Part shown: positions 5,090-35,188 of the stretch, one piece after another
How the letters are laid out: each line of letters begins with the position of its first letter
How positions within the stretch are numbered: the stretch's first letter is position 1
Source: an uncultured Clostridia bacterium
Lineage (GTDB): Bacteria > Bacillota > Clostridia > Christensenellales > UBA1242
Length of the DNA: 64,000 nt
Reading direction: 5' to 3'
Assembly (NCBI GenBank): GCA_947584415.1
Contig: CANPWN010000001.1
Span: forward strand, 13,216-77,215
The notes under the pieces: generated by a model
Seen by the model: the letters and a program-made list of their open reading frames with translations, nothing else
The model's database searches: none
Told to the model about the DNA's origin: nothing
Program-made: the position numbers and the translations under genes

Positions 5090-5223
5090 CCTCTGCTCCT
5101 TATATGGCATATTGTAACATATTCGTCCGCTTTTTCAAAACAAAGACAAATAAAAAAACGACTTGAAAGTCGTTTTAATTGATTAACATCCGCCATATTC
5201 GCAAAAAAATTACATTAACCACG

Positions 5224-7436: not shown

Positions 7437-9515
7437 TTAATTCTTTTTTGCTCTTTCGCCAACAATCTTTTCGGCGATTGATTTTGGAACTTCCTGATAT
7501 TTGAGAGGTTCCATAACATAGTTGCCTCTTCCCTGTGTTTGAGAACGAAGGTCAGTTGCATATCCGAACATCTCTGCAAGTGGAACTTCTGCATTGACAA
7601 TCTGGATGCCAGCGTTGGTTTCTGTGCCTGTCAGCATTCCACGTCTTGAAGTAAGGTTTCCCATAACTGTGCCAAGATATTCATCTGGAACTTCAACTGA
7701 AACTTTCATGATAGGTTCAAGTAGAACTGGGTCTGCTTTCTTTGCGCCATCTTGGAAAGCCATTGAACCGGCAATCTTGAAGGCCATTTCTGAAGAGTCG
7801 ACTTCGTGATAAGAGCCATCAACAACTGTTGCTCTAAAATCAACCGTTTCATATCCAGCAATAACACCGTTCATCCTTGCCTCAGCAATTCCGTTGTTAA
7901 CAGGTTGGATATATTCCTTTGGAATTGAACCACCAACAGTCTTGTCAACGAATTCGTATCCTGAGCCTGCAGGAAGTGGTTCCATTTCAATTATGCAGTG
8001 GCCGTATTGACCTTTACCACCGCTCTGACGGATGAACTTGCCTTCTGCCCTAACAGGTTTGCGGATTGTTTCTCTGTAAGAAACCTGAGGATTACCAATG
8101 TTAGCCTCAACCTTAAACTCACGAAGAAGTCTATCCACAATGATGTCAAGGTGAAGTTCACCCATGCCAGCAATAAGCGTTTGACCTGTTTCAAGGTTTG
8201 TTGAAACACGGAAAGTTGGGTCTTCACGCATAAGTTTTGCAAGCGCGAGAGCCATTTTTTCTTGCATATCCTTTGTTTTTGGCTCAATAGCAAGTTGAAT
8301 AACAGGCTCTGGGAAGTCCATGCTTTCAAGTTGGATAGGATGTTTTTCATCACAGAGTGTATGCCCTGTGATTGTGTCTTTAAGTCCAACAATAGCAGCA
8401 ATATCACCTGCACCAACTTCGGTAATTTCCTGGCGTTGATTTGCGTGCATCCTGATAAGACGCCCAACACGCTCAGTCTTGCCGGTGATTGAGTTGTAAA
8501 CATAAGAGCCGGCTTTCAAAAGTCCACTGTAAACTCTGAAGAAAGTCAGTCCGCCAACAAATGGGTCAGTCATAATTTTGAAAGCAAGACCTGCAAAAGG
8601 TGCATCCTCACTTGCCTCGCGGCTTTCCTCTTCGCCTGTGTCAGGGTTTGTGCCTTTGATTGGTGGGATGTCAAGTGGAGATGGAAGATAATCAACCATA
8701 GCATCCAAAAGCATCTGAACACCTTTATTTTTATATGATGAGCCACAAAGAACAGGCGTGAAGTGTCTTTCAATAGTTCCCTTTCTTATCCCTGCTTTGA
8801 GTTCATCAATAGTGATTTCATCACCCTCGAAGTATCTTTCAAGCAGTGCGTCATCAATTTCAACAATTTTTTCCACCATTTCTTCACGAAGTTTTTGTGC
8901 TTTTGCTTTATATTCTTCAGGAATTTCGGTGATTTCAATCTCTTTTCCGAGGTCGTCTTTGTAAACTTCAGCCTTCATTGTAAGAAGGTCAATAATTCCG
9001 CTGAAAGTATCAGCCTCGCCAATATTAAGTTGAATTGGGAGCGCTTTTGTTTTCAAGCGTTTTTCAATAGAGTCAACGCAGCCCATAAAGTCGGCAGCAT
9101 CTCTGTCCATTTTGTTGACATAAATGATTGTTGGAACTCTGTATTTTGTTGCTTGACGCCAAACGGTTTCCGTTTGAGGTTGAACTTTATCACGAGCGCT
9201 AAGCACAAGCACTGAGCCGTCCAAAACCTTCAAAGACCTTTCAACTTCAACAGTAAAATCCACGTGTCCCGGGGTGTCAATGATGTTGATTTTGCGGCCT
9301 TTCCAAAAGCAGGTTGTGCAAGCAGAAGTAATGGTGATGCCACGCTCCTGTTCCTGAGCCATCCAGTCCATGGTGGCTTGTCCATCATGAACTTCACCAA
9401 TCTTGTGGTTTTTGCCAGTGTAGAACAAAATTCTTTCAGTTGTTGTGGTTTTGCCTGCGTCAATATGAGCCATGATTCCAACATTTCTGGTCATATGCAA
9501 ATCGGTTGTAGCCAT
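7437..9515 (-). CDS. fusA: Elongation factor G
   Basis: [20 protein letters not shown] and NKMD motifs; 692 aa; str operon context. Confidence 0.98.
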
Positions 9516-9725
9516 TTTTATTTTCTCCTTATTTTATTGTTTGCCTCAAGCAAACTTTTGCAAAGTTTCTTTCGGTTGCCGTCGGGCGAAGCCCTTCTTC
9601 GGCAAAGTTAACTTACGCGATTTTATATTGTCTTTGAGAAATTTTTAAAACCCCCTTCGACAACATTGTTTTTTAATTTTTAAACTTCAATCAGTTGTTT
9701 AATGAAGTTTGAATTAAACATTTTA

Positions 9726-9916
9726 ATCCGGAGTCTCACTTTCACGGAGAAGGGCTTTGCCCGGCGGGAAAGTGAGGCGAACCCTTCTCTCGCAGAAAAA
9801 TGCCCAGCGGGGTTTTTCAAGAGGCGAAAGGGGGCTCGTGGGGTCGGAACGAATTTCAGCGGTTAGGAAAACTTGTTTTCCGTGCCCGCGTTAAGAAATT
9901 CTAGTTCCCCCCACAC
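9726..9916. repeat. GC-rich interspersed structured element, copy A (about 191 nt) in the rpsG-fusA spacer
   Basis: Shares its conserved 5' 56 nt (atccggagtctcactttcacggagaagggct...) and 3' hairpin core (gcggttaggaaa..tttccgtgcccgcg) with 34324-34517. It is locally much more GC-rich than the surrounding AT-rich DNA. On the minus strand it begins 3 nt after the rpsG stop codon. Confidence 0.8.
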
Positions 9917-9919
9917 TTT

Positions 9920-10393
9920 TTACCATCTATAATGTGCAAAGGCTTTGTTTGCTTCTGCCATTCTGTGAAGTTCATCCCTGCGCTTGATTGACGCGCCTGT
10001 TCCATTGTAAGCGTCAATAAGTTCGCCTGCAAGACGAGCGTCCATTGTTCTCTCACCAGTTCTCTTTCTTGCGAAAGTAACAATCCAGCGAATTGCAAGT
10101 GTTTGACGGCGTTCTGGTCTGATTTCCATAGGAACTTGATAGTTTGCACCACCAACACGCCTTGCTTTTGTTTCAAGCATAGGTTTCACATTTTCAAGTG
10201 CCTGATTGAACACATCAATAGGCTCTAATCCTGTTTTTTCCTTAACAATGTCAAATGCACCATAAACTATTCTTTGAGCAAGACCTTTCTTTCCATCAAG
10301 CATAACTTGATTGATAAGTTTGGTTACAGTTTTGCTTTTATAAATAGGGTCAGGAAGGACAGGTTTTTTAACGGCACTATTTCTTCTTGCCAT
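9920..10393 (-). CDS. rpsG: 30S ribosomal protein S7
   Basis: Canonical S7 sequence, 157 aa, str operon. Confidence 0.97.
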
Positions 10394-11098: not shown

Positions 11099-14000
11099 TT
11101 ACCACGGAGTTTTCGCCTCTGTAAAACCATAAGCTTGCAATCTTGCCAAAATTTCTGCAGGTGTATGCATATTTGGAGTAACCCAACTTTCTATCTTATC
11201 TAATTTTACGATATCTCCAACTATCGCAACTAACGGATGATATGGAAGACCAAGCATAAAATTATCATTATATGCCCATGGCATTGAGTTGCTGTTATTA
11301 AAATCCCAATAGACTTTGCGTGAATTAATAAGGATGGAAATAAAAGTATCTCTATCAGTTGCTCCCACAAGAAATTCACCACCAACATCACCCGGGTCAA
11401 TGCCAAAAAGATAAGTTTCAACAATATCTCCTGTTATACCAGTGTCGCTCGTTGTCGTTGGAAGCAAAGTGTAATAAAATCCGTATGCAAATGAAATCCC
11501 AATGTTTATAGTCGTATTAGCAGTAACCGCTCCAATAAACGCAGAACAACCTTTAATATTTGGAATTGAACTCATCTCATAAATGTCTTGATTCTTTTCA
11601 ATCATAGTGCAACGACCAATGTTAACTTGCCAATTTGTAGCATCAACAATAAAGCCACTTATAAAACCTTCAGTCAAAGCAGAACGTTCACAATAGACAT
11701 TTACTAATGTGATTTGACCATAATACGGAGTTTTTGTAAACACATATCCGCCTATCAATGCACTTGGGGCTTCCCATGTGCTTGTTCCTATACATAAATT
11801 CAAAAAATTAATATTAGAAAGAGTCATTCTGGATGTGGCCCAAATGAAACACGCCATAGGTGCAGCCGTATCAAATTCAGCCACAGTGCCTTGATATGCA
11901 GGAGCATTGTCAATGCAGTTTAAATTGATGATGGAGTGTCCTTGTCCGTCCAATGTGCCACTAAAATATCTGATGGCTCTAAAATCAAATTCTAAAGCAG
12001 TGCAGTCAATGTCATTGTCAAGATAAAATGTCATATCAGAGAAACATTCTGGGCCGTTATAAGAGTAAGAATAATCCGACATTGCTACCAGGCCAGTGTA
12101 ATCAGTGATGTGATACGAGCCGTTAGAGGCTTTTGTTATGCCTGGATAAGAAAGAATTAAATTATCAAACGTTAATGCTTTAACCACCTTACTACTATTA
12201 TCTAGCCTCAAACATGGACGAATACCACAATCCAATGTTTTATTTTTATCACGTAATGCACCATATTCAGTTATTATGCAGGCACGATCATTTACGGAAC
12301 CAAATGAAAGTCCTTCCGAACGAAGCCAATATTCCCCGCCAGCCATCCTAGATGAATTTCGTTCGATTGTGCTAGTTTCTGCTTCACTTGACTGGTCAAC
12401 TTCTCCACCTGTGGCACTATGAGATGCAAGATAATATTTCCCTTCAGGATCGCTCGCTGGACAATATGTGCTGGTCATTTCAGTGTATGACAAAAGCCAA
12501 ACATAATCCTGTGTTTGATAAGTCGTATCATCAAGAAAGTCTCCAGTTGTATTAGTTTTGGAAACAACAAATCCACTATTTAATCCAGCATTCTTATAAA
12601 AAGTATTATTAAGCCAACCTGATATTGAATATTTATCATCTTGCCATGTTACAGAACCCTCACCATCAGAAAAAGGGAATTCTTCTAAAATAGTGTCAGA
12701 TATAACGTCAACTCGCGTTGCTGTTGCAGGGTTCTGTCCATCAATAATCCACCATTTGATTGGTTTTGAATTATATGTGCCAAGTTCTGTGTAATAATAT
12801 ATATGTCCATTTAAGACTTCTGGAGTCCATGTCAATGATGCCTGTTTGACTTCATATTTAAGCGTCAAACATGGACGAATGCCGAGATAAGTTAAATTTC
12901 TTTGATTTAAGGCAGAAAGTCCATATGCAACCCCATTAGACCCCGCAGTATAAATATCGTTTCCTGCCGCTGAACGTAACAGCCAGTTCGTTGTCCCTGT
13001 CCTATAATCAGACTTATATGATGATTCCATAACTGCATAATTGGCAATTGCAAAATCACTCGGAGAGGCCGTTCTGGAGCCAAATTGTGCTAAAGCTGTG
13101 GCTTCATGGTCGTTGTAATATCCTCCAGAACTTCTATGCGAAGATAGATAATATGTTGTATTGCCTTTAGGACTATATTTGTTTAACTCATCATACGACA
13201 TAAGATAAACATAGTCTGATGTGTTTGCTCCACTGCCATCAGAAGTGCTACTTGATGTGTTGTTTTTGACTGTTTCATTCTTTATCACAGATGTCTTGTA
13301 TGACGAAAGCCCAGAGTCTGTAAGAAATGTGCCATTTAACCAAGTGCGAACATTGGAACTACTCCATAAATTATTTGTTCCCGTTGAAAATGGAATATTC
13401 GCCGCAAGTGCAACATCTGAGATTACCCTTATCTCCTTTGTTCCAGAAACTGTGTTTGGATTTGTTCCATCAATTATCCACCATTTGATTGGCTCAACTT
13501 TAAACCATTTCGTTGCACCAGTTGAACCAACAGATGTCCCATTTTTAAAAGTGTAAGATGTGTTATATACCGTTTGACTTCCTGAAACATATTTTTGCCC
13601 AGAAAGGCTATATTCCGTCCATGTTTTGCTACCCACAGTGTATGTTTTTCCCGTTTTGGATGTAGGCGTTGAACCAGAATAATACATTTGAGGATAAGTG
13701 CCAAGTTCGGTGTAATAATATGTATTGCCGTTTAATGTTTCACTTTTCCATGTTATGTTTGATGTTGTTGCCGCCTCACCAACATCTGAGATTGTGGATG
13801 GCTCAGAAATATTGTTTAAAGGAATTGAAATTTGCGGGAAACAAAATAATGACAAAACAAATGCCATGAACAAATATGAAAATGAATGTCTCGTTTTTGA
13901 ATAGATGTTCTTCACATCCATTAGTATAGGTTTTTTTGATATTTTTAGCAAATATTTTTCGACATTTTGTCGAAATTTGCTTTTCTTTTTCTCCTTATTT

Positions 14001-14122
14001 TGTGGACAACTTTTAGTTAAGCAGTAAGGTTGCCCCCCCCCCGGTGACATTTTGTTACAAAAAGTTTTTTCATTTTCATTTTTTCCTTTTTGTGGATAAA
14101 CTTCTGTTATTAGTATAGCCAA
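11099..14122 (-). CDS. Large secreted protein: two DUF6273-like domains plus a C-terminal FxGxLDGQGHxI-type beta-helix domain (start codon ambiguous, see poly-G leader)
   Basis: Maximal ORF is 1007 aa. The signal-peptide-like segment YLFMAFVLSLFCFPQISIP follows the ATG at 13921. Two units of PIKWWIIDG...WLN.TF...WLLRS...GIRPCLTL are present. The C-terminal FSGTLDGQGHSIINL motif is shared with the 32879-34078 protein. Confidence 0.8.
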   Translation of the reverse strand: MAILITEVYPQKGKNENEKTFCNKMSPGGGQPYCLTKSCPQNKEKKKSKFRQNVEKYLLKISKKPILMDVKNIYSKTRHSFSYLFMAFVLSLFCFPQISIPLNNISEPSTISDVGEAATTSNITWKSETLNGNTYYYTELGTYPQMYYSGSTPTSKTGKTYTVGSKTWTEYSLSGQKYVSGSQTVYNTSYTFKNGTSVGSTGATKWFKVEPIKWWIIDGTNPNTVSGTKEIRVISDVALAANIPFSTGTNNLWSSSNVRTWLNGTFLTDSGLSSYKTSVIKNETVKNNTSSSTSDGSGANTSDYVYLMSYDELNKYSPKGNTTYYLSSHRSSGGYYNDHEATALAQFGSRTASPSDFAIANYAVMESSYKSDYRTGTTNWLLRSAAGNDIYTAGSNGVAYGLSALNQRNLTYLGIRPCLTLKYEVKQASLTWTPEVLNGHIYYYTELGTYNSKPIKWWIIDGQNPATATRVDVISDTILEEFPFSDGEGSVTWQDDKYSISGWLNNTFYKNAGLNSGFVVSKTNTTGDFLDDTTYQTQDYVWLLSYTEMTSTYCPASDPEGKYYLASHSATGGEVDQSSEAETSTIERNSSRMAGGEYWLRSEGLSFGSVNDRACIITEYGALRDKNKTLDCGIRPCLRLDNSSKVVKALTFDNLILSYPGITKASNGSYHITDYTGLVAMSDYSYSYNGPECFSDMTFYLDNDIDCTALEFDFRAIRYFSGTLDGQGHSIINLNCIDNAPAYQGTVAEFDTAAPMACFIWATSRMTLSNINFLNLCIGTSTWEAPSALIGGYVFTKTPYYGQITLVNVYCERSALTEGFISGFIVDATNWQVNIGRCTMIEKNQDIYEMSSIPNIKGCSAFIGAVTANTTINIGISFAYGFYYTLLPTTTSDTGITGDIVETYLFGIDPGDVGGEFLVGATDRDTFISILINSRKVYWDFNNSNSMPWAYNDNFMLGLPYHPLVAIVGDIVKLDKIESWVTPNMHTPAEILARLQAYGFTEAKTPW
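14033..14042 (-). repeat. Homopolymeric G10 tract (C10 on plus strand) in the 5' leader/N-terminal region of the 1007-aa gene
   Basis: Counted directly: 14033-14042 are all C. The tract lies 37 nt downstream of the RBS+ATG (14079). Confidence 0.9.
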
Positions 14123-22143: not shown

Positions 22144-22623
22144 TTAAATAATAGAATTTTTTCCGAAATTTTTTATTATCAACTTTTTTAATTCTTCCTT
22201 TTCAATAGGACTATTAGAGTGCGAACCAACACAGTCCCAAATCACATAAGGGCGAATGTTGTGGTCAAAAAGTTGAAACATAATTGCAAGCACACAAGAG
22301 TCATAATCCGTGCCACAAAGATAGCACTCCTTACCTTTTATACCCCCCCCCGCAAAAATTTCATCTGGAAGAGCATAAGAGGTCTTTTCAATCACTTGTG
22401 TATTTTTTGGAAGTGCCACAACAATTTGTTGTTCATCCGCCTCCGTGAACCTGTGCCAATCTAAAAATTTAGCATAAGGACTTTGAGGTGAATTGACAAA
22501 CTTAGTGGCAATAATTTTATCAAATTTACTGTTTTTGAGCAATTTTTCAATATTTTTTTGCAAAAATTCATTATTTTTTGTGATAAATCCTTTTTGCATA
22601 TCAACAACAATAAGTGTTTTCAT
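22144..22623 (-). CDS. Isochorismatase-family cysteine hydrolase
   Basis: IVVDMQKGF (Asp), ATKF (Lys) and GTDYDSCVLA (Cys) match the isochorismatase/nicotinamidase triad pattern. It is inserted between dnaK and dnaJ. Confidence 0.7.
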   Translation of the reverse strand: MKTLIVVDMQKGFITKNNEFLQKNIEKLLKNSKFDKIIATKFVNSPQSPYAKFLDWHRFTEADEQQIVVALPKNTQVIEKTSYALPDEIFAGGGIKGKECYLCGTDYDSCVLAIMFQLFDHNIRPYVIWDCVGSHSNSPIEKEELKKLIIKNFGKNSII

Positions 22624-30107: not shown

Positions 30108-32738
30108 TTACTTACCCAAATTTTCCAATGCAGCATCAACCTCGTCAATAATCTCTTCATTATTCATAAGGCTTGAGATATAGCCCAGTGCATCAGCGGG
30201 AATGTCATCAGTAAGTTTTTGTTGCATCTCTTCTGTGATAGCTTGTTTCACAGTTGCACTTGAGCATTTAGCAACCAGCCTAAAAGTTTTGAACAACTCT
30301 TCTACACTCTCAATATCAACATTATCACCGTCAGCATATTTATCAATATCTTGTGCCAATTTCACAACTCTTGCTGCGTAAGATTTCATATTTCTAACGG
30401 TTGGGCGCTTGTCTTCAGGCAACCTGCCAAACAACTTTTGTGACGCTTTGTCAAATGTTTTGCGATACATAATCACATCCATGTAATCTTCGAATATTAC
30501 TTTATCATCTTCACCTAACAAAGATGTCCCGAGCATTGTAAGTCCAGCAAGTGTGAGCATGTCCTGTGCGCCAAGTTGTTGCATATCATCTTCCAAGGTC
30601 TTTTCGCTTTCAAGGGCTTTAAGACCTCTTTCTCTATCAGTCTTATACCAAACGCTTTCTTGCTCATTAGAAATCTCTTCCGCTTCTTCTTCTGGCTGTT
30701 CTGCCTCTACTTCAGCATTTTCTTCCTCAGCCTTTTCTTCCTCAGCCTTTTCTTCCTCTTTTGCAACATAACCTGTTACAGTGCCTGTGTCAACTTTCCC
30801 GTCAACTATTGCTTGTCCACAAACATTGGCATCACCACAAACTTCTGCGCCTTTGTTTATTTTGGCATTTCCATAAACTTCTGCATTGCCATAAACAACA
30901 CAGCCATTCAATTCTGCTTTGCCATACACTTCTGCACCATCAGACACAACCGAATTGATAACTTTTGCGGCTCCATAAATTTCAGCATCATTAAGAATCA
31001 AACTTTTTTCAACTCTTGCTGCTCCATAAACTTCAGCATCACCTTCTACTATTGAATTCTTAATGCTTGCAACACCATAAATCTCGCCACCATAAATTAA
31101 AGATGAATTTACATTTGCAACGCCATATACTTCAGAGCTTATTAAAAATGATTTTTTTATAAGTGCCTTTTCGTAAATATCAGACACTATAATTAAAGAA
31201 TCTTCAATTTTAGTGTCATCGGAAATGTTTGTTTGACCTATCAAATATGAACTTTTGATGTTTGGCGTTCCAAAAATACATGCTTCTTCATCCATCCATG
31301 ACTCTCCGTCATCTTGCCAATCACCTAGTGCATTTAATTCAACAAAACCGCCAAGTGTTCCTTCTTTAATTTCACAATCGAATTCGCCTTTGTCCATATC
31401 TTCAACAAATTCTTCCATGTCTTTCTTAAAATCTTCATCGTCAATTTCAGACATACCCGAATTCAAAGCCTTTTTCGCAAGTTTCTTTGCAACATCAGTC
31501 GATTTAGCCAAAGAGATGTCTTTCAAAGCGACAATTTGGTTCAGAGTGTATGTGTTACCATTTGCATCTTCAAAATCTTTTGTTATATTTGTTACGCCCC
31601 AACCATTAAGAGTTTTGAGAATTTCATATTCTTCTCCATCTTCTTCTACTTCTTCCTCTACTTCTTCGTCAGGTTGCGCTTCTTTTTGTTTATTGGCAAA
31701 TTCAACTTCAAGTTGTTCTCTAAGTTCCGCCTCAATCTTTTCCCTAAGTTCAGCTTCAACTTTTGCCCTTGTTTTGGCTTCAACCTCGGCAGTTGTCTCC
31801 GCTTTAACTTTGGCAGTGATTTCTTTTTCTACTTTTGCGGTGATTTGAGGTTTAAGTTTGGCTATAAGTTCAGCTTGAACATCATTAAGCAGCGCTGCTT
31901 TACGCTCTTGATATTCTTTTTCATATCTATTTGCTTTGATAACTGATGGCTCGCCTTGTTTTGGTTCAACAACTTGTCCCATCCCAACATTGAAGTCCAC
32001 TTTGGCATATCCACCAATTTCGGCATCACCGTCAATTCTTGCATTGCCAAAGACTTCTGCATTGCCAGAAACACGCGCACCTTTGTTTAAAATAACTCTG
32101 CCACCAGGGAAAACTTCTTCCCCACCGCAAACAGCAGCATCTTCATAAATTTTGACATTTCCTCCGACTTTGGCTGCGCCATACACTCTTGCATTGTCAG
32201 TAACTTCAGCAGAGCCATCAACGCTGGCGCCGCCAAAAACTTCACTATCTCCATGAACATACGCGTTCCCACTTACTTTTGCATTGCCGTATACCTTCGC
32301 GTTGTCAGTTATCAAACCACTATAAATTTGGGCTTTGCCATACACTTTTGCATCGCCATTGATAACGCTTCCTGAATAAGCATATGCTTCACCATACATT
32401 TCTGCGTTACCGCTGATAACGCTTCCTGAGCAAGCATGCGCTTCGCCATATAGTTCTGCGTTACCGCAAATCATTGCATCACTATTAACAACTGCTTTAT
32501 CATACACTTTTGCAGTGTCTCCAATCCACCCTTCTAATGGATAGAACCTTCTTTCTTGATAATTGTAATATCCACCCAAAGTCCCTTCTGTTGCAATAAT
32601 TTTGCCATCTTTATCTGTGATATCTTTGATAGCAACAACACGGTTTAGCACAATATCCTTTCCATTGCGCGTAATGGTTAGGGTTATGTCTGTTACGCCA
32701 AAACAAGTTTTTTCATCTATAATTTTGTATTCGTCCAT
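30108..32738 (-). CDS. 876-aa cytosolic protein with two tandem [small beta domain + left-handed beta-helix hexapeptide repeat] modules, a charged coiled coil, acidic linkers and a helical C-terminal domain
   Basis: Start set at MDEYKII (AGGAGGggaaaATG at 32738); the 908-aa track ORF runs through its own promoter. Strict 6-residue periodicity is visible (YGNAKV SGNAYV HGDSEV FGGASV DGSAEV TDNARV YGAAKV ...). There is no signal peptide. The module heads LNRVVAIKDI..EGTLGGY and LNQIVALKDI..EGTLGGF are duplicated. Confidence 0.8.
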   Translation of the reverse strand: MDEYKIIDEKTCFGVTDITLTITRNGKDIVLNRVVAIKDITDKDGKIIATEGTLGGYYNYQERRFYPLEGWIGDTAKVYDKAVVNSDAMICGNAELYGEAHACSGSVISGNAEMYGEAYAYSGSVINGDAKVYGKAQIYSGLITDNAKVYGNAKVSGNAYVHGDSEVFGGASVDGSAEVTDNARVYGAAKVGGNVKIYEDAAVCGGEEVFPGGRVILNKGARVSGNAEVFGNARIDGDAEIGGYAKVDFNVGMGQVVEPKQGEPSVIKANRYEKEYQERKAALLNDVQAELIAKLKPQITAKVEKEITAKVKAETTAEVEAKTRAKVEAELREKIEAELREQLEVEFANKQKEAQPDEEVEEEVEEDGEEYEILKTLNGWGVTNITKDFEDANGNTYTLNQIVALKDISLAKSTDVAKKLAKKALNSGMSEIDDEDFKKDMEEFVEDMDKGEFDCEIKEGTLGGFVELNALGDWQDDGESWMDEEACIFGTPNIKSSYLIGQTNISDDTKIEDSLIIVSDIYEKALIKKSFLISSEVYGVANVNSSLIYGGEIYGVASIKNSIVEGDAEVYGAARVEKSLILNDAEIYGAAKVINSVVSDGAEVYGKAELNGCVVYGNAEVYGNAKINKGAEVCGDANVCGQAIVDGKVDTGTVTGYVAKEEEKAEEEKAEEENAEVEAEQPEEEAEEISNEQESVWYKTDRERGLKALESEKTLEDDMQQLGAQDMLTLAGLTMLGTSLLGEDDKVIFEDYMDVIMYRKTFDKASQKLFGRLPEDKRPTVRNMKSYAARVVKLAQDIDKYADGDNVDIESVEELFKTFRLVAKCSSATVKQAITEEMQQKLTDDIPADALGYISSLMNNEEIIDEVDAALENLGK
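30718..30758 (-). repeat. 15-nt tandem repeat (2.7 copies) encoding EEKAEEEKAEEE
   Basis: The unit ttttcttcctcagcc is repeated exactly at 30718-30732 and 30733-47, then partially. Confidence 0.8.
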
Positions 32739-32771
32739 TTTCCCCTCCTGTATGAACTTTTTTACGAGATT

Positions 32772-32800
32772 ATTATAAACCCTGTCGTCGTCAATGTCAA
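32772..32800 (-). promoter_or_regulatory. Perfect consensus sigma-A promoter of the hexapeptide-repeat protein gene
   Basis: TTGACA-17 nt-TATAAT on the minus strand. Confidence 0.75.
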
Positions 32801-32848
32801 TACCCAATTTTTCAGGAAAAACGGATAAAAACACGCTTTCCCAGACAA

Positions 32849-32874
32849 CAAAAAAACGGTATAACCGTTTTTTA
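32849..32874 (-). terminator. Terminator after the 399-aa beta-helix protein gene
   Basis: Stem acggt/accgt followed by a T-run on the minus strand, directly after the stop at 32879. Confidence 0.7.
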
Positions 32875-32878
32875 TATC

Positions 32879-34078
32879 TTAATTAACTTGTCCTGCCCAA
32901 TAAAAGTGCCTAAGATGTGGCTGTCCGTCTGCCCCTGTAAACCATTTGGATGGAGTGAAACTGGATTCGATGGCCTCGCCATTGACATAGACACCTTGAT
33001 AATTACACCAATAATAGCTTGGAAAATATTCACCACCTTCAAAAAAAAGCCCTCCATAAGCCAGACAGTTGAATGCACAATCATAAAAAGTAATGTTATA
33101 ATCATGTGTATAACTGAAAAGACAATAGCTACTCCCATTACCCTTATTTATGTAAAATTCACATCCTGTACACGTAAAACTGGAGAATGCGGCAACCTCT
33201 AACAACTGACATAACCACAAATAATTTACATCAATTAAAACATTATTCAAAATGACATCTGCAAACCCCTCGCCGTCATATGTATCAATAATTAAACACA
33301 TACCATCCGCTATAATTACTGAGTCTGTCATGTAGATCTCAGAACGACCATAATTATCTGTATAAGTGGTTCCTACCAAGGTATCACAAATCGCTTCACG
33401 ATTAATAAAATTTAAATCACTTATAATCAATTTGCCATGCAAATTTGCACAAAGATTGCCGCATTCTTTAATTTTTATATGTGAAATGCGGCACATATCA
33501 AATGCGGAACATATGAGAGGAGCACTTATTCCTTCAATAGTAATATTTTGTAAAGTAAAATCACGCACAGAGTCGAACAAGTAATAGCCATCATATGTAA
33601 TAGTATGCCCTTGCCCATCAAAAATACCTTTTATATATTCTGAACTGATAAGTGTTGGTTCGTAGCCAGTCAAATCAAGGTTATCGTCAAGAAGATATTT
33701 ATAATCACTATAAAAAGTCACTTCAGGATTAGCAAGAGCCTCTTGCAAAAAAAGATAGCCATCAATTGAGTTTATGTGAATACTTACACATGATGAAATA
33801 TAAGTCTCATCATATCCTTTCCAAATTCCACTTCCATCATCCTCATAATAAGGCACCATATCTTCAAATTCTGTATATTCATCCGTTACAGCAGTGGCTT
33901 CAGTCGGCAAAGCGGTGACATCAGTGGTTGGAAGAGCATTCAACGGAAGGCAAAGAAGAGCAAAAATAAAAGCCAAGGCGGTTGAAAAAATTATTTTCAA
34001 AAGCCCCGGCTGTTTTGAAAAATGTGGATAATTTTTAGTTAGGCAGTAAGGCTGCCCCCCCCCCCCGGTGGGTAACAA
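32879..34078 (-). CDS. Secreted beta-helix protein (FDGQGHTI motif family); start ambiguous, see poly-G leader
   Basis: The track ORF starts at a TTG. The hydrophobic signal-like segment is KIIFSTALAFIFALLCLPLNA. GIFDGQGHTITYDG plus Cys/aromatic-rich beta-helix-like repeats, ending ..GQPHLRHFYWAGQVN. Confidence 0.75.
   Translation of the reverse strand: MLPTGGGGQPYCLTKNYPHFSKQPGLLKIIFSTALAFIFALLCLPLNALPTTDVTALPTEATAVTDEYTEFEDMVPYYEDDGSGIWKGYDETYISSCVSIHINSIDGYLFLQEALANPEVTFYSDYKYLLDDNLDLTGYEPTLISSEYIKGIFDGQGHTITYDGYYLFDSVRDFTLQNITIEGISAPLICSAFDMCRISHIKIKECGNLCANLHGKLIISDLNFINREAICDTLVGTTYTDNYGRSEIYMTDSVIIADGMCLIIDTYDGEGFADVILNNVLIDVNYLWLCQLLEVAAFSSFTCTGCEFYINKGNGSSYCLFSYTHDYNITFYDCAFNCLAYGGLFFEGGEYFPSYYWCNYQGVYVNGEAIESSFTPSKWFTGADGQPHLRHFYWAGQVN
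34055..34066 (-). repeat. Homopolymeric G12 tract (C12 on plus strand) in the 5' leader of the 399-aa gene
   Basis: Counted directly: 34055-34066 are all C. The tract lies 22 nt downstream of GAGGAaaaaATG (ATG at 34088). Confidence 0.9.
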
Positions 34079-34170
34079 AATGTTTCATTTTTTCCTCGCT
34101 TGTATTTTGTCTATGTGGATAACTTACAAAGGTATTATAACCGAAAATTAGCGAATAACCAAACAAAATA

Positions 34171-34203
34171 ACAAAAAATCCCAAAAATGTTGACATTTTT
34201 GGG
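34171..34203 (-). terminator. Terminator ending the 222-aa gene / GC-element transcript
   Basis: Minus strand cccaaaaatg-tcaa-catttttggg followed by attttttgttatttt. Confidence 0.6.
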
Positions 34204-34318
34204 AAAACGAGCAGTGTTGCCCGTTTTTTTGTTGCACCCGACAAGTTTTTTACTTGGAGACCAATTTTATGGGGGAAGGGCTTTGCCCGACCAAAAATTC
34301 TAGTTGCACCAGCGATTT
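34204..34318. repeat. Two internally deleted copies (C2 34204-34255, C1 34262-34318) of the GC-rich element
   Basis: On the minus strand C2 reads aaaacttgtcgggtgcaacaaaaaaacgggca..ttttccc, matching the copy B 5' hairpin. C1 reads ggtgcaactagaattt..gggcaaagcccttc, joining 5' and 3' motifs of copy A. Confidence 0.65.
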
Positions 34319-34323
34319 TAAGC

Positions 34324-34517
34324 ATCCGGAGTCTCACTTTCACGGAGAAGGGCTCTGTCCGGCGGAAAAGTGAGACGAACACCTCTACCACGTCGCAAGG
34401 CGCAGGTATCAAGTCTTGCAGTGGTGCGAAGGGGGGCCTGTGGGGGGAAACAAAAAAAAGCGGTTAGGAAACAATGTTTCCGTGCCCGCGTTTTCTTTTT
34501 TTGTTGCACCCCACAAG
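34324..34517. repeat. GC-rich interspersed structured element, copy B (about 194 nt)
   Basis: Its 5' 56 nt are about 90 percent identical to 9726-9781, and its 3' hairpin core is shared with copy A. On the minus strand it starts 3 nt after the stop of the 222-aa gene. Confidence 0.8.
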
Positions 34518-34519
34518 TT

Positions 34520-35188
34520 TTAGAACCTCGGTTGATTTATTGGCCCTGTTGCCGTTGGATAGAGCGGCATTTCAAAGAGTCCTGGGCAAGCACTTGATGA
34601 CGGTGCTGCCTGGCATGGTGGGATAACAGGATAACCATAAGATGGCACAAGCACATCAACGAGTGCTGTCACCCTCAAAATTACTTGTAAGCAGCCGGTT
34701 ACAGTGAAGGTGTTTTCAGCCGTGTAAGAGCCAATTTCACTTGAGAACACAGCGCTTGCAGAAATGTTGATTGGAGTGACAGAAGGTTGAGGAACAAAAA
34801 GAATTACGCTTTTTGAAACGGTGATTGTGCTTGTTCCTGTGCCAAGAACGCCGTTTGCATCACGATAAGTCACCACAATTGGGATGGTCACATTTGCACT
34901 CACATTAGCATAGTTTGGGCTGGAGTCAATTCTGTCCACAACAAGGTCAGATATGGTCACTGGACCATTTGTTGCGTTTGCAGCAGAAACATATGTGAGT
35001 GGCAAGGCTGGAGAAGCCGGAGTTAAATCAGTGACTGCAAGCACAATGCCAGTTTCGGTGCTTTGTGACACGCAGGCGTCAAAAACCTTGGTTGTTTCAA
35101 TCAAGATTTTTTCACAAATCCCATTGAGCGGGTTGCCCATAATAGGCCCTGGACGATTAGGATTTGTATTATTGATGTAAAAAGACAT
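34520..35188 (-). CDS. 222-aa beta-rich Thr/Ser/Val/Pro-rich protein, candidate spore-surface/coat component
   Basis: Strong RBS (ataGGAGGtaggaaaATG), no signal peptide, and a Pro-rich Cys-containing tail (PPCQAAPSSSACPGLF). A sigma-K-like promoter lies upstream. Confidence 0.6.
   Translation of the reverse strand: MSFYINNTNPNRPGPIMGNPLNGICEKILIETTKVFDACVSQSTETGIVLAVTDLTPASPALPLTYVSAANATNGPVTISDLVVDRIDSSPNYANVSANVTIPIVVTYRDANGVLGTGTSTITVSKSVILFVPQPSVTPINISASAVFSSEIGSYTAENTFTVTGCLQVILRVTALVDVLVPSYGYPVIPPCQAAPSSSACPGLFEMPLYPTATGPINQPRF

Follow-up and report, generated by a model that had tools for sequence, protein, structure and literature searches.

How is a gene expressed when a run of 12 G separates its well-formed start codon from a long open reading frame (ORF) lying in another frame? 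This question is raised by a minus-strand gene of the 64,000-nucleotide stretch analysed here (the window), which comes from contig CANPWN010000001.1 of an uncultured Clostridia bacterium (NCBI GenBank assembly GCA_947584415.1). The G12 gene, at about 34 kb, is called locus 2, and a G10 gene at about 14 kb, also on the minus strand, is called locus 1. We give a probability of about 0.78 to the reading that the G tract, in the first codons of a gene for a surface or secreted protein, acts as a contingency locus, a phase-variation switch of translation driven by slipped-strand mispairing. Loci of that kind have a homopolymer or short repeat inside the 5' coding region, usually of a surface-related gene, and the G12 here stands in the 5' coding region of a gene whose product has a signal peptide. 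The first-pass annotation had placed TATAAT, a Shine-Dalgarno sequence (SD) with ATG 34088, and G12 at 34066-34055 in this order on the coding strand, with a stop of the ATG frame directly after the tract. All of these details were confirmed when the sequence was read, the ATG frame being translated as MKHFVTHRGGGAALLPN and then terminated, and the second poly-G leader copy that it had proposed is indeed present, with a G10 at 14042-14033. The features of both loci are collected in Table 1.

The two start codons stand in the same phase relative to their tracts. Nineteen bases separate the ATG from the G12 at locus 2, a pre-tract length of 22 nucleotides (nt) when counted from the ATG, and the corresponding length at locus 1 is 37 nt; both are 1 mod 3, as had been claimed. 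In-silico variation of the tract from n=7 to n=15 bore out the expectation that G11 or G14 would fuse the ATG to the ORF: at both loci full length was reached only at n=8, 11 and 14, with products of 401, 402 and 403 amino acids (aa) at locus 2 and of 992, 993 and 994 aa at locus 1, and the other lengths gave 14-18 aa and 19-23 aa at the two loci. At n=10, 12 or 13 the locus 2 product measures 15-17 aa, and a single-unit change toggles between the full-length and the truncated product. Neither of the native lengths, G12 and G10, is in frame, and a single G separates each of them from the shared ON length; both OFF frames terminate in a conserved TAACTAA at both loci. The ON frame is free of stops from the tract to the signal peptide, over 18 codons at locus 2 and 55 codons at locus 1; the latter stay open in 0.6% of shuffles, and the other two frames hold 1-4 stops. 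That both window copies (2/2) are out of frame, and that the locus 1 leader is rearranged, is also what one would see in two decaying pseudogenes broken at a fragile homopolymer. This explanation is hardly credible, as about 1.2 kb and 2.9 kb downstream are open with no second lesion and the cassette is conserved, double stop included.

Fused versions of this leader were found elsewhere. An exhaustive HMMER search of 1.84 billion representative proteins returned four proteins from other contigs in which the complete fused leader is followed by a signal peptide and a related body. The N-termini of these proteins (P0005, P0006, P0007 and P0009), all single-member clusters from NCBI contigs, read M[KQ]HFVTHRGGGQPYCLTK[NS]YPHF... 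or MKKLFVTKYHRGGGQPYCLTK..., and RGGG, which is what C+G11 encodes, is present in 4/4 of them. Word-indexed protein searches returned only P0001, the locus 2 gene, and one relative, P0002, which is 38% identical to P0001 and identical to it over the first 18 residues as called; P0002 is probably an OFF allele, like both window genes. As regards the search method, the word-indexed searches, for which the ON-state protein and a leader profile were the queries, missed homologues with 32 identical N-terminal residues that exhaustive HMMER recovered.

The switch module had been said to be conserved independently of the coding bodies, and these proteins support this: leader and signal peptide (the first 48-68 residues) are 67-79% identical, against 25-45% for the bodies, whose domain make-up also varies. 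Moreover, P0007 joins a locus-2-type leader to a locus-1-type signal peptide, and such mosaic conservation fits recombination or gene conversion of the cassette. The same cassette stands at the head of at least seven genes of one paralogous family and, since each member carries it in full (promoter, box, SD-ATG, tract, double stop, leader and signal peptide), the members would be able to switch independently.

These homologues also bear on the start codon. Because all four start with the complete fused leader, the leader ATG appears to be the true start and both window genes appear to be OFF by one G, which supports the earlier view that the SD-equipped upstream ATG is the real one. Nearly all window genes carry an AGGAGG-like SD, with a median duplex energy of -7.6 kcal/mol; the leader ATGs have normally spaced SDs of -6.9 kcal/mol (locus 2) and -6.2 kcal/mol (locus 1), and the internal start candidates score 0 to -5.0 kcal/mol with wrong spacing. 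The long ORF of locus 2 (32879..34078) has three in-frame starts before its signal-like segment, TTG 34078, TTG 34000 and TTG 33976, and none of them has a properly spaced SD, as the first-pass annotation had stated. TTG 34000 reaches -5.0, but its GGGG stands as close as 3 nt to the start codon; the SD score is 0 for TTG 33976, at which the public gene call (P0001) begins, and likewise for ATG 13921 at locus 1. In the database P0001 and P0002 are both called from an SD-less TTG. That public call would suit a reading in which the short ORF has a regulatory role, as an upstream ORF or leader peptide, translation of the protein begins at TTG 34000 or 33976 and the tract belongs to the 5' untranslated leader; MKIIFSTALAF..., translated from TTG 34000, resembles a normal signal peptide, and a hairpin with a U-run comes after the short ORF. 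We consider this highly improbable, as in four homologues the protein runs from the leader ATG across the tract, the internal TTGs have no usable SD, the ON frame is free of stops and its peptide is conserved, and Rfam gave no match.

We also looked at the tract as DNA. G or C runs of at least 8 occur only three times in the window, all of them G on the minus strand (G10 14042-14033, G9 22351-22343, G12 34066-34055), and about 0.01 G runs of at least 10 are expected per 64 kb of this composition, as estimated from base frequencies. GGG is the rarest glycine codon in the window (13.6% of glycine codons; p=0.0025 for a GGG triple), and elsewhere in the window Gly-Gly-Gly is encoded by a mixture of codons; the run therefore appears to be retained at the DNA level, the protein having no need for it. 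The third run, G9 (22343-22351, minus strand; ORF 22144-22623), encodes AGGGI, in frame, in an isochorismatase-domain gene. It provides a control, within the same window, for the calling of homopolymers and is possibly a mutable site as well, and given this in-frame run the assembly looks sound.

Poly-G leaders were also found in related families. A profile built from seven family members retrieved 105 proteins, and the four fused proteins and the newly retrieved relatives make up a set of 106 (P0005-P0114). GGG lies within the first 60 residues in 31/106 of these family proteins, compared with 3.8% of other 60-residue windows (p=5e-19), and it occurs there in at least five unrelated leader contexts: HRGGGQPYCLTK, ILCGGGCFLALF, KFAGGGIFDK, PQGGGRLNS and GGGISLLLNL. 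Several near-identical family genes are called with different N-termini in different assemblies. DNA was obtained for two of the related leader contexts. The assembled genome GCA_947625515.1, also of Clostridia, has seven paralogues with AAAAAGGAGA..ATG, five codons and G9 in common, a poly-G cassette (MKRKFAGGGIFDK) that differs from the window cassette; 2/7 are in frame at G9 (ON), whereas 5/7 are out of frame (OFF) and need G10. One and the same locus has G9 (OFF) in the NCBI bin L008 and G10 (ON; 5162-5171) in the independent European Nucleotide Archive contig L009. A syntenic DUF6273 gene, 3' of Fe-ADH and GIY-YIG genes, has G9 in L012 (3073-3081) and is ON, with 1141 aa read from an SD-equipped ATG, and the same locus has G11 (OFF) in L013 (3035-3045) and L014 (129-139), from two other samples. 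In these three contigs the tract lies inside the membrane-anchor coding region (VILCGGGCFLALF), and for the OFF alleles of L013 and L014 the gene caller fell back on an SD-less out-of-frame ATG, with spurious N-termini such as MRGNRSLGNIMRGGGC. In-frame and out-of-frame alleles both exist in nature, as the four fused proteins versus the two OFF loci of the window, and the relatives, demonstrate. ON/OFF tract-length polymorphism is demonstrated for the related families only; the tract at locus 2 presumably varies within populations too, and its switching would be reversible and frequent.

The alleles of the related families are informative about two further explanations. If the homopolymers had been miscalled, the true tract would be G11 at both loci, the genes would be intact, and G10 and G12 would be assembly or sequencing errors in a low-coverage metagenome bin. 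All sequencing platforms make errors in long G runs, each of the two tracts is off the ON length by exactly one G, and the only other contig found for this organism has about 2.8x coverage. We nonetheless regard a miscall as unlikely: the other long ORFs of the 64 kb are all intact, among them some with A8 or T8 runs and the one with the in-frame G9, and in the related family two independent samples agree on the OFF length (G11, L013 and L014). Even if this explanation were correct, the tract would still be a mutable switch. The second is recoding, in which RNA polymerase slippage or ribosomal frameshifting on the G run would bring part of the messages back into frame and provide low constant expression and not an ON/OFF control. 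Each locus needs a shift of just one, and RNA polymerase is known to slip on long homopolymers, for instance in Thermus dnaX, Shigella mxiE and endosymbiont poly-A tracts, although such slippage is best documented on A/T runs. The fused in-frame alleles, together with related loci both in and out of frame, form the pattern expected of DNA-level variation, and this makes recoding very unlikely as the explanation, even if it may coexist with DNA-level switching.

Several observations weigh against a phase-variation switch at the window loci, or at least against a tight one. The G11 of the ON-state homologues is deduced from their peptide RGGG. Searches for a second allele returned little: exact-protein look-ups with P0001, P0002, P0006, P0007 and the 222-aa and 874-aa neighbours gave no record, CCTTACTGCNTAACTAAAA had four chance matches in the genome contig collection, none with a G tract, CARCCTTACTGCNTAACTAAAA had no match in the metagenome contig collection, and a protein-guided metagenome scan found no relatives. 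In the related family, contig L009 ends 6 nt past its G10 tract, so that this length is less reliable. At locus 2 the -35 element (TTGGTT) is weak. In the ON state 30 residues (locus 2) and about 68 residues (locus 1) would precede the hydrophobic core, which is long for a signal peptide. Finally, an SD-less ATG at 14050 is in frame with the locus 1 body at G10, and TTG 34000 at locus 2 is preceded by a weak GGGG; the OFF state is therefore possibly leaky. Besides these results, an alanine racemase look-up led to a 2.3-kb contig (L005) that ends short of the leader.

According to the phase-variation reading, which we favour, the gene would be transcribed from its own promoter-like element and translated from a normal SD and the ATG 22 nt ahead of the tract. 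The TATAAT presumably acts as the promoter; it was read from the sequence and the alignment as a match to consensus only and scored under the threshold of the promoter scan. As a terminator-like hairpin (34204-34179) shuts the upstream unit, locus 2 is apparently its own transcription unit. With 11 G (or 8, or 14) the ATG frame would read MKHFVTHRGGGQPYCLTKNYPHF..., into the signal peptide and the beta-helix body, and the protein would be made (ON). Slipped-strand mispairing in replication would add or remove one G. With 10 or 12 G, ribosomes would stop in the TAACTAA 13-19 nt past the tract, after a peptide of 15-17 aa (20-22 aa at locus 1), and the body would be left with SD-less TTG codons only, at locus 2 inside a strong hairpin; the OFF state would presumably yield little or no protein. 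This hairpin (33971-34011) covers both internal TTG candidates, 34000 and 33976, and may reinforce the OFF state; it could also be a translation-sensitive terminator in that state.

Other known arrangements were considered and rejected. A homopolymer switch in a promoter spacer, of the type of Mycoplasma vlp, Bordetella fim, Neisseria porA/opc or Treponema tpr, does not agree with a tract 3' of the SD and ATG, and no sigma-70-like hexamer pair bracketing the tract was found at either locus, by promoter scan or by eye. A known cis-regulatory RNA, such as a riboswitch, T-box or leader, was set aside, with 0 Rfam matches at gathering score and chance-level matches only at relaxed E-values, and so was a leader RNA structure conserved between the two loci, as their folds differ.

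Table 1. Features of the two window loci, of the fused homologues and of the related cassettes. (-), minus strand of the window.
Feature	Position	Description
Locus 2: terminator-like hairpin and T-run	34179..34204 (-)	end of upstream transcription unit
Locus 2: putative promoter	34134..34162 (-)	-35-like TTGGTT 34162-34157, 17-nt spacer, perfect -10 TATAAT 34139-34134
Locus 2: box 1, TTATCCACA	34114..34122 (-)	5' untranslated region; identical to DnaA-box consensus
Locus 2: SD and start	34086..34097 (-)	GAGG 34097-34094, 5 nt, ATG 34088-34086
Locus 2: G12 homopolymer (putative switch)	34055..34066 (-)	in frame at 8, 11, 14 G; out of frame at 12
Locus 2: TAACTAA	34035..34041 (-)	overlapping stops for both OFF frames; ON frame reads (L)TK; also at locus 1, 14019-14013
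Locus 2: OFF-state product at G12	34035..34088 (-)	17-aa peptide MKHFVTHRGGGAALLPN and stop
Locus 2: box 2, TTATCCACA	34023..34031 (-)	in the ON frame, codes for part of conserved NYPHF (YPH)
Locus 2: RNA hairpin, then UUUUAUUUUU (U-run)	33971..34011 (-)	-21.3 kcal/mol, z -5.0; within signal-peptide coding sequence
Locus 2: gene body after tract	32879..34054 (-)	leader peptide QPYCLTKNYPHFSKQPGLL, signal peptide KIIFSTALAFIFALLCLPLNA, predicted all-beta secreted protein with FDGQGH motif; stop 32879-32881
Locus 2: terminator-like hairpin	32851..32873 (-)	immediately 3' of locus 2 stop codon
Locus 1: cassette	14001..14117 (-)	TATACT 14117-14112; TTATCCACA 14099-14091; AGGA 14087-14084; ATG 14079; G10 14042-14033
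Locus 1: cassette, 3' part	TAACTAA 14019-14013; TTGTCCACA 14009-14001 (-)	OFF at G10 (MKMKKLFVTKCHRGGGNLTA and stop), ON at G8, G11, G14
Locus 1: body	11099..14032 (-)	large protein; two stretches match DUF6273; FDGQGH-type C-terminal region as at locus 2
P0005 N-terminus		MQHFVTHRGGGQPYCLTKSYPHF...
P0006 N-terminus		MKKLFVTKYHRGGGQPYCLTKNYPHF...
P0007 N-terminus		MKHFVTHRGGGQPYCLTKNYPHFSKQPGLLKIFFSSALAFVLSLFCFP...
P0009 N-terminus		MQHFVTHRGGGQPYSLTKSYPHF...
GCA_947625515.1: G tracts	L006 8265-8273, 10018-10026; L008 3929, 5646, 7367; L010 2537, 3929	

The comparison of the two window cassettes showed how far the leader is shared. Its identity had been put at about 80%, a value that changes with the treatment of gaps: over the module that runs from the -10 element through the second TTATCCACA, 79/93 ungapped columns are identical (85%), or 79/117 when gaps are included (67.5%), and the 32-nt block after the tract is identical at 28/32 positions (87.5%). 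At locus 2 the G12 is followed by CAGCCTTACTGCCTAACTAAAAATTATCCACA, ending at 34023 (minus strand), and the conserved post-tract 19-mer has exactly 2 occurrences in the window, compared with 0.04 expected by chance. In the alignment the TATACT of locus 1 falls at the place homologous to the locus 2 TATAAT. The coding bodies align at background level (about 49%). They had been said to share only the FDGQGH motif; the motif region does match (15/38 identical, E=2e-5), and a weak similarity of the signal peptides is also present.

Locus 1 differs by a rearrangement of its leader. Segment 14020-13960, after the tract, repeats in tandem and in diverged form the segment before the tract (region 13960-14109), with 60 nt after the tract aligned to 67 nt before it at a score of 42, the best of 500 shuffles being 34. 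The duplicated segment holds a -10-like element, the box and an SD-like AAGGAG, and the duplication lengthens the leader by about 19 codons relative to all other family members.

The box TTATCCACA, which equals the DnaA-box consensus, has three perfect copies in the window, all inside the two cassettes, and box 2 of locus 1 (14001-14009) is a one-mismatch copy. The boxes are direct repeats 90-91 nt apart (34114-34122/34023-34031; 14091-14099/14001-14009), and box 1 sits just 3' of the -10 element; the motif was not found in the other poly-G leader families. A replication origin or DnaA-box cluster was rejected, as each cassette has two boxes only, GC skew is negative across the whole window, box 2 is coding and the flanking genes are ligA, the alanine racemase gene and similar.

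As to the gene products, the 399-aa locus 2 protein has no Pfam match, and PF19789 (DUF6273) was found above gathering score in the locus 1 protein (86 bits), P0007, P0071 and P0020. An AlphaFold2 model of the 365-aa core of the locus 2 protein is all-beta, with a modest confidence (predicted local distance difference test, pLDDT, 61), and the top Foldseek matches, all weak (E of at least 0.05), are with few exceptions right-handed beta-helices, such as pectate lyases, tailspikes and IgA1 protease. The model and these matches suggest that the product is probably a right-handed beta-helix secreted protein; with a pLDDT of 61 and weak matches throughout, this fold is likely but short of proof. 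A prophage tail fibre was rejected: no PHROG match was found for the locus 1 or the locus 2 protein, and the flanking genes are housekeeping genes (ligA, the alanine racemase gene and similar). The post-tract 19-mer had 0 matches in viral contigs. The host had been guessed to be Gram-positive, which agrees with the SpoIVA encoded in the window; SpoIVA points to an endospore-forming member of the Bacillota, and one family member is labelled 'Clostridia bacterium' in the database.

Two further elements lie next to locus 2. Directly 3' of it, a minus-strand gene (30108-32834) encodes a 908-aa protein with long hexapeptide or bactofilin-like repeats and an acidic coiled-coil middle, which has strong matches to PHROG families without assigned function. 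A GC-rich repeat of about 200 nt has copies at 34312-34520 and at 9716-9922 (minus strand), the cores of which agree at 90%, and a partial third copy lies at 34247-34289. One copy is directly upstream of the locus 2 cassette, closed by the hairpin 34204-34179, and the other lies between the ORFs 9920-10393 and 7437-9515. RNAalifold predicted 54 pairs in this repeat, 10 of them with compensatory changes between the two copies, and Rfam gave no match; the repeat is a candidate for either a structured RNA or a structured repeat element.

Several known systems resemble the arrangement described here. Homopolymer contingency loci are textbook knowledge for Neisseria, Haemophilus, Campylobacter and Helicobacter, and the phase variation described so far in Gram-positive gut anaerobes is mainly that of invertible DNA switches. 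The opa genes of Neisseria form a paralogous surface-protein family with a conserved 5' leader that carries slippery CTCTT repeats in the signal-peptide coding region; the number of repeats sets whether the mature protein is in frame with an ATG that is in constant use, and the copies switch independently. The window family is alike in being a surface-protein family with a repeat in the 5' leader and a frame-dependent ATG. However, the opa repeat is a pentamer inside the hydrophobic core and the window tract is a homopolymer, the opa products are Gram-negative outer-membrane proteins, and there is no sequence relationship. In the vlp genes of Mycoplasma hyorhinis a strongly conserved 5' region and signal peptide stand ahead of variable bodies, but there a poly-A tract in the promoter spacer acts as a transcriptional switch, and the window tract is outside the promoter spacer.

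Frame switching at poly-G has been described in Campylobacter jejuni, where G8-G13 tracts in coding sequences of a low-GC genome give ON/OFF frame shifts and standing population variation (PMC3025981, PMC8224891). These loci are like the window in having poly-G in the coding sequence and a frame-shift ON/OFF control, and unlike it in being mostly glycosyltransferase, capsule and flagellar-modification genes, with no shared 5' cassette, in a Gram-negative epsilonproteobacterium. In the Gram-positive Gardnerella, the cell-wall protein gene nanH3 has a homopolymer of 8-14 (poly-C) near its 5' end, beside the signal peptide, and gives full length only at C9 or C12, else peptides of 37-44 aa (doi 10.1101/2020.09.16.300947). 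Its tract comes after the signal peptide, whereas the window tract comes before it, and nanH3 is a single gene of an actinobacterium, whereas the window has a family-wide cassette. In the sabA/hop genes of Helicobacter pylori a repeat in the 5' coding region switches the frame (PMC2715451); these outer-membrane protein genes have dinucleotide CT repeats, compared with poly-G in the window family. Our literature searches found no description of this gene family or of poly-G switches on DUF6273 proteins of Clostridia, and DUF6273 appears in the literature mainly as a phage receptor-binding domain and as a target of diversity-generating retroelements. The mechanism is not new, and the conserved poly-G 5' cassette on a gene family of uncultured spore-forming Clostridia would be an instance of it.

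A wider system is possible, though we hold it to be rather doubtful: an undescribed DUF6273/beta-helix superfamily of uncultured endospore-forming Clostridia with 5' poly-G switches in at least five leader contexts, to which the window cassette would add extra layers, namely the DnaA-box-like 9-mers, one where the transcript is predicted to start and one within the leader, and the translation-sensitive terminator-like hairpin, which would halt OFF-state transcription. Automatic annotation truncates the genes of this family: P0001 and P0002 are made to start at an SD-less TTG, and other members at ATGs that are out of frame. Reads from metagenomes could directly measure surface-coat switching in uncultured commensals. 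In conclusion, a lineage of spore-forming Clostridia known only from metagenome bins carries a family of genes for secreted beta-helix and DUF6273 proteins, all of them preceded by one and the same poly-G cassette and, if the wider system exists, these commensals would have a combinatorial, Opa/Vlp-like phase-variable surface coat.

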